Below, piece after piece: positions 14,387 through 15,032 of a stretch of DNA of 64,000 nucleotides. The stretch's first letter is position 1, and each line of letters begins with the position of its first letter. Source of the DNA: Parcubacteria group bacterium (GTDB taxonomy: Bacteria; Patescibacteriota; Minisyncoccia; Moranbacterales; UBA2206); contig JBAZYF010000001.1 of the NCBI GenBank assembly GCA_041659505.1, positions 35,654 through 99,653 of the forward strand, read 5' to 3'. The translations under genes and the position numbers were made by a program. Below the pieces are notes generated by a model. That model worked only from the letters and a program-made list of their open reading frames with translations. It made no database searches and was not told the origin of the DNA.

Positions 14387-14492
14387 TTAAATTGTCTTAA
14401 ATACTAATCCCCAAATACTAGCTTATTTAGGCAAATATTGGAAGATTGGGGCTTAAGGACTTGCCCCGTGATAACGAAGTTATTTTACGGGG

Positions 14493-14521
14493 TTGACTTT
14501 TTAGTTGATTTGGAGTATAAT
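14493..14521 (+). promoter_or_regulatory. Consensus sigma70-type promoter of antisense cassette 1
   Basis: TTGACT at 14493-14498, a 17 nt spacer, and TATAAT at 14516-14521. Sits in a block (about 14402-14530) shared with 17765-17840. Confidence 0.6.
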
Positions 14522-14583
14522 GGTAGGTTATGAAATACAACGATTATTTTTAACATTTACCTTAACAAAAGGAGCTTTATATT

Positions 14584-14754
14584 ATGAAAAGTGAACTTGA
14601 AAAATTAGTAGCGGGAGCTACGGCAGGAGCTCTAATAGGATCAGGACTTTTTCTTCTTTTTTCTTACGAACCAAGAAATGCTGGAATTTTTTTATTTTTA
14701 GCAGGAACGTTTCACTTCTCTGGAGTGTTGCTAGAAAAAAAACGCAACCCCTAG
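14584..14754 (+). CDS. Small hydrophobic protein (56 aa, two predicted TM helices)
   Basis: ATG sits 9 nt after AAAAGGAG. Reads MKSELEKLVAGATAGALIGSGLFLLFSYEPRNAGIFLFLAGTFHFSGVLLEKKRNP. Below the 60-aa cut-off of the ORF track. Downstream of the consensus promoter. Confidence 0.4.
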   Translation: MKSELEKLVAGATAGALIGSGLFLLFSYEPRNAGIFLFLAGTFHFSGVLLEKKRNP

Positions 14755-14769
14755 CGTTCCCTATCACAT

Positions 14770-14878
14770 TGTCAGTTCAAGTCTCTGACTTGAACCATCC
14801 AGTTCTTAACCCTCATCGAAAGTCGCCGATTTCTAATGAATGAAGCGACTTTTTTTATTTTCAAAAGAACTTTTTTTA
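14770..14878 (+). terminator. Terminator module, copy a
   Basis: Hairpin 1 is GTTCAAGTCTCTGACTTGAAC, followed by CCAGTTCTTAAC, then hairpin 2 AAGTCGCCGATTTCTAATGAATGAAGCGACTTTTTTT, then ATTTTCAAAAGAACTTTT. The same module occurs at 18123..18225 and 18239..18343. Confidence 0.6.
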
Positions 14879-14883
14879 ATAAT

Positions 14884-15032
14884 TGTCATCCTGAGCGAAG
14901 CGGAGCGGAGTCGAAGGATCTACTAATGATTATCGTTAGCTTTGCTATAAATCACAAAGCTAGTGGTAATGGAAAGCAGATCCTTCGACTTCATAAATTT
15001 TCTAACGAAAATTTATTCCGCTCAGGATGACA
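14884..15032. repeat. About 150-bp palindromic element with GTCATCCTGAGCG termini (family 2-like)
   Basis: TGTCATCCTGAGCGAAGCGGAGCGGAGTCGAAGGATCT ... AGATCCTTCGACTT ... CCGCTCAGGATGACA. Nested 12-13 bp inverted repeats. Confidence 0.55.

Follow-up and report, generated by a model that had tools for sequence, protein, structure and literature searches.

INTRODUCTION

A classical moron is a promoter, an open reading frame (ORF), and a terminator inserted between two genes that are otherwise adjacent. Neisseria has minimal mobile elements, in which homologous recombination between conserved flanks exchanges variable genes, and type I toxin-antitoxin systems such as ldr/rdl, ibs/sib, and hok/sok form repeat loci. 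Morons are independent transcription units in phage genomes and are spread horizontally (PMC3594210), and the reuse of promoters, in the form of putative mobile promoters, has been reported in other work (PMC3488235, PMC3575422). Here we describe two related cassettes in a 64,000-nucleotide stretch (hereafter the window) of contig JBAZYF010000001.1 from a Parcubacteria group bacterium, an uncultured Patescibacterium of the Moranbacteria type, which lie on the plus strand between atpD and atpG (cassette 1) and between atpA and atpH (cassette 2) of an ATP synthase (atp) operon encoded on the minus strand, together with their counterparts in related genomes. Our literature search found no description of antisense, exchangeable cassettes of this kind.

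We favor, with a probability of roughly 0.6, the interpretation that these are self-contained, moron-like expression cassettes of Moranbacteria-type Patescibacteria, whose cargo would be exchanged between conserved flanks. Each cassette consists, in this order, of a dyad of about 62 bp, a near-consensus sigma-70 promoter, a short and partly conserved leader with a strong Shine-Dalgarno (SD) sequence, a putative gene for a small lineage-specific protein, often with two hydrophobic segments, a putative intrinsic terminator acting in one direction, and a conserved T-tract and box.

The cassettes resemble phage morons in combining, as judged by sequence, a sigma-70-type promoter, a single small ORF, and a factor-independent terminator in one unit, in the position of this unit between genes that are adjacent in relatives, and in a G+C content lower than that of the neighboring sequence (34 to 40% versus 47%). 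They differ from morons in residing in a cellular housekeeping operon, with no phage genes near the cassettes and no real match in viral scans, and in showing flanks that are homologous across genomes, swapping of cargo, arrays, and a strict antisense rule. As with putative mobile promoters, a nearly identical promoter region precedes nonhomologous genes both within and across genomes; here, however, a conserved dyad, leader, and 3' end are included, and the reused unit is the whole expression frame. As in the minimal mobile elements of Neisseria, related genomes carry different inserts at one and the same chromosomal position, bordered by conserved genes, but the flanks include the expression signals of the cassette itself and not just the neighboring core genes. 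Cellular housekeeping surroundings, homologous 5' and 3' frames conserved across genera around changing cargo, the antisense rule, and arrays set the cassettes apart from all three of these systems. With integron cassettes they share small and mostly orphan ORFs, a variable hairpin between conserved motifs, and arrays of a single orientation; unlike integron cassettes, each has its own promoter, no integrase is found in the stretches around the atp operon or around the cassette of L093 (described below), and the units are scattered in operon spacers and not lined up behind one attI. Small hydrophobic peptides, repeated intergenic modules, and strong signals recall type I toxin-antitoxin loci, whereas there is no evident antisense RNA gene, different copies have different ORFs, and many of the cargo proteins are soluble.

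RESULTS

Anatomy of the two cassettes in the window

Cassette 1 is composed of the following features.

14397-15032, cassette 1 as a whole.
14397-14458, no strand assigned, 62-bp dyad-symmetric 5' block with arms TTAAATACTAATC and GATTGGGGCTTAAGG and center GCTTATTTAGGC.
14464-14492, plus strand, optional 29-nt hairpin with a G+C stem (CCCCGT...ACGGGG), between the dyad and the -35 box.
14493-14521, plus strand, sigma-70-type promoter, TTGACT-17-TATAAT, matching the consensus at 11 of 12 positions.
14528-14583, plus strand, predicted leader with the conserved proximal motif GGTTA..AAATACAACG (sequence reading and leader alignment).
14584-14754, plus strand, ORF1, an orphan of 56 amino acids whose translation has two hydrophobic stretches of 17 residues (residues 8 to 24 and 34 to 50).
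14775-14795, plus strand, hairpin P1 of the 3' module (from the fold, with two compensatory pairs among three copies).
14801-14871, plus strand, P2/P3 of the 3' module, in which the 7-bp stem P2 (AGTTCTT/AAGAACT) encloses the predicted terminator hairpin P3 (14818-14853).
14850-14856, plus strand, T-tract.
14857-14870, plus strand, conserved box ATTTTCAAAAGAAC, following the T-tract.
14884-15032, no strand assigned, 149-bp palindrome TGTCATCCTGAGCG...CGCTCAGGATGACA with inverted repeats I1 and I2, resembling repetitive extragenic palindromes (REP) or miniature inverted-repeat transposable elements (MITE).

Cassette 2 is its twin.

17745-18452, cassette 2 as a whole.
17745-17805, no strand assigned, dyad-symmetric 5' block, with a reverse-complement self-match at 17804-17735 (E = 4e-5).
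17808-17836, plus strand, promoter TTGACT-17-TATAAT.
17891-18115, plus strand, ORF2, a soluble orphan of 74 amino acids (translation).
18127-18222, plus strand, first 3' module (P1 and P2/P3), with its box at 18208-18221.
18244-18341, plus strand, second 3' module in tandem, with its box at 18327-18340.
18353-18452, no strand assigned, palindrome of a second family, TCTGAACCACTGATT...AATCAGTGGTTCAGA, read by eye, whose right arm overlaps the last codons of atpH.

Alignment of the atpD-atpG and atpA-atpH spacers (749 and 827 bp) revealed two plus-strand blocks common to both. The upstream block recurs over 44 nt at 14404-14447 and 17752-17795 (chance expectation, 0.00) and in its full extent covers 125 bp in cassette 1 and about 92 bp in cassette 2, the former being longer because of the extra 29-nt hairpin at 14464-14492. 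This hairpin is absent from cassette 2, where the alignment has a gap, and a similar insert is found at the same position in L015_HA, L014_GD, and L011_HA, three cassettes of related genomes. The promoter sequence TTGACTTTTT(A/G)GTTGATTTGGAGTATAAT occurs within the 64 kb only at 14493 and 17808 (expectation from shuffles, 0.00), the two copies differing at 1 of 29 positions, and the cassette promoter is among just six in the window with a score of at least 11 of 12. An SD sequence, AAAGGAG, lies 9 nt before the ATG at 14584, with GGAG at 14571-14574.

The downstream block, or 3' module, is present in three copies (approximately 14775-14871, 18127-18222, and 18244-18341), with the motifs CATCCAGTTCTTAACCCTC and TTATTTTCAAAAGAACTTT each occurring three times, once in the first spacer and twice in the second. 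All three copies share one plus-strand fold, in which P1 is followed by P2 around a variable P3 that runs into TTTTTTTATTTTCAAAAGAAC, and the z scores of the folds are -4.5 to -6.4 on the plus strand versus -2.2 to -3.8 on the minus strand. The T-tract is on the plus-strand side of P3 only, so the predicted terminator should act in one direction. Wherever they overlap it, three short contigs of other assemblies (ENA, Logan, and JGI) match the spacer sequence with 100% identity, and the feature is therefore not an assembly artifact.

The initial annotation of this stretch had placed between minus-strand atp genes a spacer of about 750 bp, for which Pfam and gene calls give 749 bp (14360-15108). 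It had recognized on the plus strand a strong ribosome-binding site, a gene for a 56-residue peptide with two transmembrane segments, a two-hairpin terminator module, and a palindrome of about 150 bp, and had pointed out that promoter block and module recur in the atpA-atpH spacer with another ORF; the SD sequence, translation and hydropathy, the common fold of the three modules, the 149-bp palindrome, and the unrelated 74-residue ORF2 agree with this description. Every feature that it listed is there at the position given. Its conserved block of about 130 bp compares with 125 bp in cassette 1 and about 92 bp in cassette 2, and its perfect promoter, correctly placed, is slightly overstated at 11 of 12 positions.

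Cassettes of relatives have conserved flanks and unrelated cargos

Relatives were gathered by a search with AtpG, which yielded metagenome-assembled genomes (MAGs) of Moranbacteria and Moraniibacteriota, the closest having AtpG proteins 65 to 76% identical to that of the window. Two profile searches gave 15 cassettes in 10 genomes or contigs, namely, the 2 of the window and 13 others, which form two subfamilies. All 15 are antisense to both neighbors, none having been found in the sense orientation, and nearly every one has its own promoter, with 10 to 12 of 12 matches. The sites comprise 14 atp spacers and 1 spacer between frr and rseP.

The atpG and atpD genes are 28 to 72 nt apart in seven relatives (L005, L012, L013, L017, L019, L020, and L023) and 265 to 2288 nt apart in many others, and the atpH-atpA and atpD-atpC gaps are also enlarged in some genomes. 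L005 (AtpG 75% identical) has no cassette, and L006 (73%) has one at the same place and on the same strand as cassette 1, with a homologous dyad, a similar proximal leader, and a different ORF. The promoter is identical at 29 of 29 positions in L006, L085, and L086, in which the dyad and proximal leader are homologous and the ORFs unrelated. The latter two came from a promoter scan of metagenomes. L086 is another atpH-atpA cassette, and L085 is devoid of atp genes, its cassette lying between frr and the gene for an M50 protease (rseP). In L093, a longer copy of L085, the cassette ORF is the sole plus-strand gene among 21. In tetranucleotide composition, L093/L085 is as similar to the window (0.973 to 0.980) as one part of the window is to another, and both occur together in two samples. 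These observations are not decisive; L093/L085 may belong to the same genome as the window and represent its third cassette, at a non-atp site.

Replacement of the cargo can be followed in L011 and L015, which are about 89% identical through the atp genes. Their atpH-atpA cassettes are 77% identical over the dyad, promoter, and early leader and 94% identical from the T-tract onward, and the middle is unrelated, with an ORF for a soluble protein of 80 amino acids in one, an ORF for a multipass protein of 98 amino acids in the other, and different terminator stems. Their atpG-atpD spacers do not align at all; one is occupied by a GIY-YIG gene in sense orientation, the other by a cassette in antisense. 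The position of the 5' breakpoint is about +25 or about +35 in the leader, depending on the pair compared. Cassettes are also arrayed. The 2.3-kb atpG-atpD spacer of L008 contains four antisense units in series, each with a promoter, SD sequence, ORF, and terminator, and at two of the junctions the T-tract leads directly into the next 5' block.

The concentration in atp spacers raises the possibility that the cassette is a regulator of atp, in which a dyad-controlled convergent promoter would collide with transcription of the operon and thereby tune or uncouple atpBEFH, atpAG, and atpDC, the ORFs being incidental. In its favor are the 14 cassettes in atp spacers, with none in the part scanned of the flanking non-atp sequence of the atp-anchored loci and the window, and a promoter and dyad whose conservation far exceeds that of the ORFs; the sense promoter-like sites before atpF, atpH, and atpA hint at a segmented operon. 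Yet the frr-rseP spacer contains a cassette of this family, close relatives (L005, for example) do without one, the strong SD sequence on every cargo would be needless in a pure collision device, and the terminators would halt the transcript ahead of atp coding sequence. Regulation by collision is in our judgment distinctly unlikely, and the sites point to a probable preference of the cassettes for atp spacers.

The 5' block is a dyad facing the downstream host gene

The 5' block is an imperfect inverted repeat, whose nhmmer profile matches its own reverse complement. RNAalifold analysis of seven homologues predicted 23 pairs, 7 of them with compensatory changes. Among the mismatches, G-U is as frequent as A-C, so that neither strand is favored; for this reason an RNA hairpin is not favored, and we read the block as a dyad that probably acts at the DNA level, as a putative protein-binding site. 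A stabilizing hairpin at the 5' terminus of the leader was also considered and rejected, since five leaders form it only weakly (-3.2 to -7.3 kcal/mol) and that of cassette 1 hardly at all.

A symmetric block that always faces the start of a host gene could also be a bidirectional promoter module driving that gene (atpD, atpA, or rseP), with the plus-strand transcript as a by-product and the ORFs arising de novo, in keeping with the orphan cargos. In cassette 2, a minus-strand TTGAAA-18-TATACT does overlap the plus-strand -10 box. Against such a module, no sense promoter is found at a conserved position (none with at least 8 of 12 matches in WIN_GD, L085, or L021), the near-consensus element is the plus-strand promoter and not a minus-strand one, and the conservation of the SD sites points to selection on translation. 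We regard this explanation as very unlikely.

Database searches with the cargo ORFs and their SD sequences

ORF1 matches only itself among 5.8 billion protein clusters, as does ORF2 in both large protein searches (a word-index search and a full HMMER search of 1.84 billion proteins), and the cargo ORF of L085 has no match other than itself in large protein collections. A Pfam scan of ten cargos, with E values up to 10, gave no credible match, and the idea that ORF1 mimics the c subunit of ATP synthase found no profile support. The AlphaFold2 model of ORF2 is weak (mean predicted local distance difference test score, 59), too weak for a structure search. In an all-against-all comparison the cargos are mutually unrelated, except for two tandem paralogues in L008. 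By hydropathy, 6 of the 15 are soluble (74 to 97 amino acids), and 9, that of L021 included, have at least two hydrophobic segments. In L007, the atpG-atpD cassette (spacer positions approximately 250 to 320) has apparently just a 22-codon hydrophobic ORF, LLVYGWKVLVLFGIIMAIVANL, after GGAGG, followed by the usual terminator and box.

Every cargo that was read is preceded by an SD sequence of the AAGGAG/AGGAG type, versus 3 of 57 host genes with the 5-mer; the 4-mer is found in 8 of the 57 (ORFs of at least 120 amino acids in the window). The upstream regions of host genes in the window are A/T rich.

Small-toxin loci are typically repeated intergenic modules, and a 56-residue hydrophobic peptide behind a strong promoter, the nine cargos with two or more hydrophobic segments, and the apparent 22-residue hydrophobic peptide of L007_GD would suit type I toxin-antitoxin-like loci, in which small toxic peptides are held in check by an antisense RNA. 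Between 14584 and 14880, however, there is no minus-strand promoter-like site with at least 9 of 12 matches (a consensus scan may miss weak promoters), six cargos are soluble, and the ORF differs between copies, unlike in known repeated toxin loci. We give this explanation hardly any credence.

The 3' end and the search for an exchange mechanism

Across the cassettes, the terminator hairpins have a T-tract on the cassette strand only. The box, as TTTTC(A/C)AAAGAAC, directly follows the terminator hairpin in L085, L086, L006, L007 (twice), L010, and L026, and a copy with one mismatch follows the hairpin in L027. Two roles tried for the box were rejected. Were it a minus-strand -35 element, a -10 box should lie at a suitable distance, yet none does in the copies read; the idea that it is the left arm of the following 5' block in truncated form is suggestive in subfamily 2 (L008, L011, and L015) and unconvincing in subfamily 1. 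At Rfam gathering thresholds, tRNAs were the sole matches in the window, and a permissive search added one match far below threshold, to a microRNA hairpin model; no known RNA family was thus found.

The L008 array, with T-tracts that lead directly into the next 5' block, and the exchange of an ORF plus hairpin bounded by conserved motifs raise the question of integron-like site-specific recombination, with one promoter per cassette, the dyad or the hairpin and box as the site, and a recombinase encoded elsewhere. The 7-bp stem AGTTCTT/AAGAACT, which brackets the variable hairpin in the window, would fit such a site, but it is not conserved outside the window genome. No recombinase family is represented among the genes called around the atp operon, in a stretch reaching about 10 kb beyond its left end and about 8.5 kb beyond its right end, or within 10 kb of the frr-rseP cassette of L093. 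No attC-type RYYYAAC/GTTRRRY cores were noticed on reading the module sequences, in which CCAGTTCTTAAC and TTTTCAAAAGAAC bracket the hairpin and neither matched such a core; no dedicated pattern search was made. The differing 5' breakpoints fit homologous recombination or divergence better. An integron-like mechanism seems to us very unlikely.

Exact-pattern scans with the 3' module in genome, metagenome, and viral collections returned nothing, which is weak evidence, since a JGI contig that bears the module was itself not returned from the metagenomes. Viral scans with the 5' block and promoter gave 0 matches, and four viral matches of the box pattern lie in coding-like sequence without a preceding hairpin and were taken as chance.

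Palindromes adjoining the cassettes

The palindromes adjoining the cassettes (14884-15032 and 18353-18452) look REP/MITE-like. The cassette itself is unlike a MITE or REP repeat in being protein coding and in having just two copies in 74 kb of the window genome. Palindromes related to that of cassette 1 come after the box in L006, L007, and L086. Palindromes of the cassette 2 family (TCTGAACCACTGATT/AATCAGTGGTTC(A/G/T)GA) lie against the upstream host gene at its stop codon, a related CAGTGGTTCGGA immediately adjoins the stop codon of atpG (15097-15108), and the motif is also present in spacers of relatives (L011_HA and L015_GD). A third palindromic repeat family, CCTTCTCCC..GGGAGAAGG..GGATGAGGG, occurs at 20841-21025 (upstream of atpB) and at 52681-52840 and also adjoins the L085 cassette (L085 3093-3259), with 71 to 88% identity.

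The host operon and other occupants of its spacers

The host genes are as follows; gene calls for the source contig are those of ENA metagenome contig ERZ27247358 k141_404315 (158.7 kb).

12501-12941, minus strand, atpC (Pfam).
12947-14359, minus strand, atpD (F1 beta; Pfam ATP-synt_ab, 1.1e-74), with its start toward the 5' end of cassette 1.
15109-16068, minus strand, atpG (F1 gamma; Pfam ATP-synt, 1.7e-82), predicted to be protected by the cassette 1 terminator.
16074-17612, minus strand, atpA (Pfam).
18440-18841, minus strand, atpH (Pfam).
19041-19529, minus strand, atpF (Pfam).
19971-20831, minus strand, atpB (gene calls of the source contig).

Genes in the neighborhood of the cassettes include atp, NADH-dehydrogenase-like, NUDIX, and TatD genes. 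The minus strand carries 50 of the 57 large ORFs of the window, in which the GC skew is negative throughout, and ORF1 and ORF2 are among its few plus-strand genes. Near-consensus promoter-like sites lie on the minus strand directly upstream of atpF (19531-19559) and atpH (18914-18943), and a third, before atpA (17829-17858, 10 of 12), overlaps with the promoter of cassette 2; from these predicted sense-strand promoters, the atp operon may be transcribed in several pieces. From the atpA start codon to the dyad of cassette 2 (17612-17739), a distance of about 130 nt, the sequence is taken up by tandem repeats of low complexity, with about 7 units of AATTTCT and about 4 of TTGAAAA. AtpH (delta/OSCP) has just 133 amino acids and matches positions 55 to 172 of the 172-position Pfam profile; its N-terminal part looks to be missing, apparently throughout the lineage, since relatives match over the same length.

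Sense-oriented genes of the PDDEXK_3, 23S_rRNA_IVP, GIY-YIG, and NUDIX families are also found in atp spacers of relatives, in the atpD-atpC spacer of L011, L015, L029, L030, and L036, the atpF-atpH spacer of L015, and the atpG-atpD spacer of L011 and L016. The first three of these families are often regarded as selfish. The atp spacers are thus general slots for small inserts, among whose occupants the antisense cassettes form a class of their own.

DISCUSSION

Our results demonstrate that a conserved frame, in which unrelated small ORFs are found, recurs on the strand opposite to the host genes in Moranbacteria-type genomes, singly or in an array. The cassettes occupy spacers within long co-directional runs of housekeeping genes, mostly atp, and in every case on the opposite strand. 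In the mechanism that we propose, this orientation would avoid polarity. The terminator is predicted to work in the direction of the cassette only, and because of this the host operon would not be stopped or broken. The cassette transcript would end before the upstream host gene, atpG or atpH, and its end may be reinforced by the doubled module in cassette 2 and by the palindromes of both cassettes. The stretch from the distal leader through the ORF to the terminator stem appears to be replaced over evolutionary time, with the flanks left in place. Recombination through the conserved flanks is the likeliest route of exchange and could also explain the copies in other spacers of the same operon (in the window, L007, L011, and L015) as well as the L008 array.

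The initial annotation had proposed an inserted, modular mobile cassette with conserved flanks and variable cargo, implying antisense or insulating transcription within the operon. This proposal is supported in part. Insertion fits the seven relatives in which atpG and atpD are 28 to 72 nt apart, and variable cargo between conserved flanks is borne out by the 15 cassettes, the L011/L015 pair, and the L008 array; that the block could be ordinary atp intergenic sequence is contradicted by the copy between frr and rseP. No mechanism of mobility was found near the atp operon. The cassettes do lie antisense, but the predicted transcripts end before atpG and atpH and would be antisense to part of the spacer only, not to atp coding sequence; any insulating role would be putative.

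Several points weigh against the interpretation as moron-like cassettes with exchanged cargo. The functions of promoter, terminator, and ORF are predictions from sequence. Some cost would be expected from having a strong convergent promoter within an essential operon, and the interpretation leaves this cost unexplained, just as it gives no role to the conserved box after the T-tract. Neither a target-site duplication nor a precise, repeated breakpoint was found; together with the lack of a recombinase in the stretches scanned, this means that the exchange could partly be fast divergence. Most loci were fetched via AtpG, which inflates the apparent preference for atp. Finally, ORF1 and ORF2 are without homologues and could be incidental.

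A bolder proposal is that Moranbacteria-type bacteria of the candidate phyla radiation (CPR) possess a dedicated, hitherto unrecognized cassette-exchange system, in which orphan small-protein genes are swapped and arrayed in a standard frame (dyad site, consensus promoter, leader with SD sequence, and terminator tract and box) that is targeted, in antisense, to spacers of essential operons, especially atp. We consider this unlikely. If it were true, the frames could be a nursery for new small membrane proteins and, at the same time, convergent-transcription controls on the expression of ATP synthase subunits.

If our interpretation of moron-like cassettes is correct, gene turnover would have hot spots even within the most conserved operons of streamlined CPR genomes (<1 Mb), and these hot spots would use a standard promoter-terminator frame in which the cargo changes faster than the flanks. 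The frame would then provide a searchable signature for the origin of the orphan small proteins of microbial dark matter, for the way in which new genes are tested while essential operons stay intact, and for whether convergent transcription tunes ATP synthase. The conserved promoter, leader, and terminator would also be candidate genetic parts for bacteria with almost no genetic tools.

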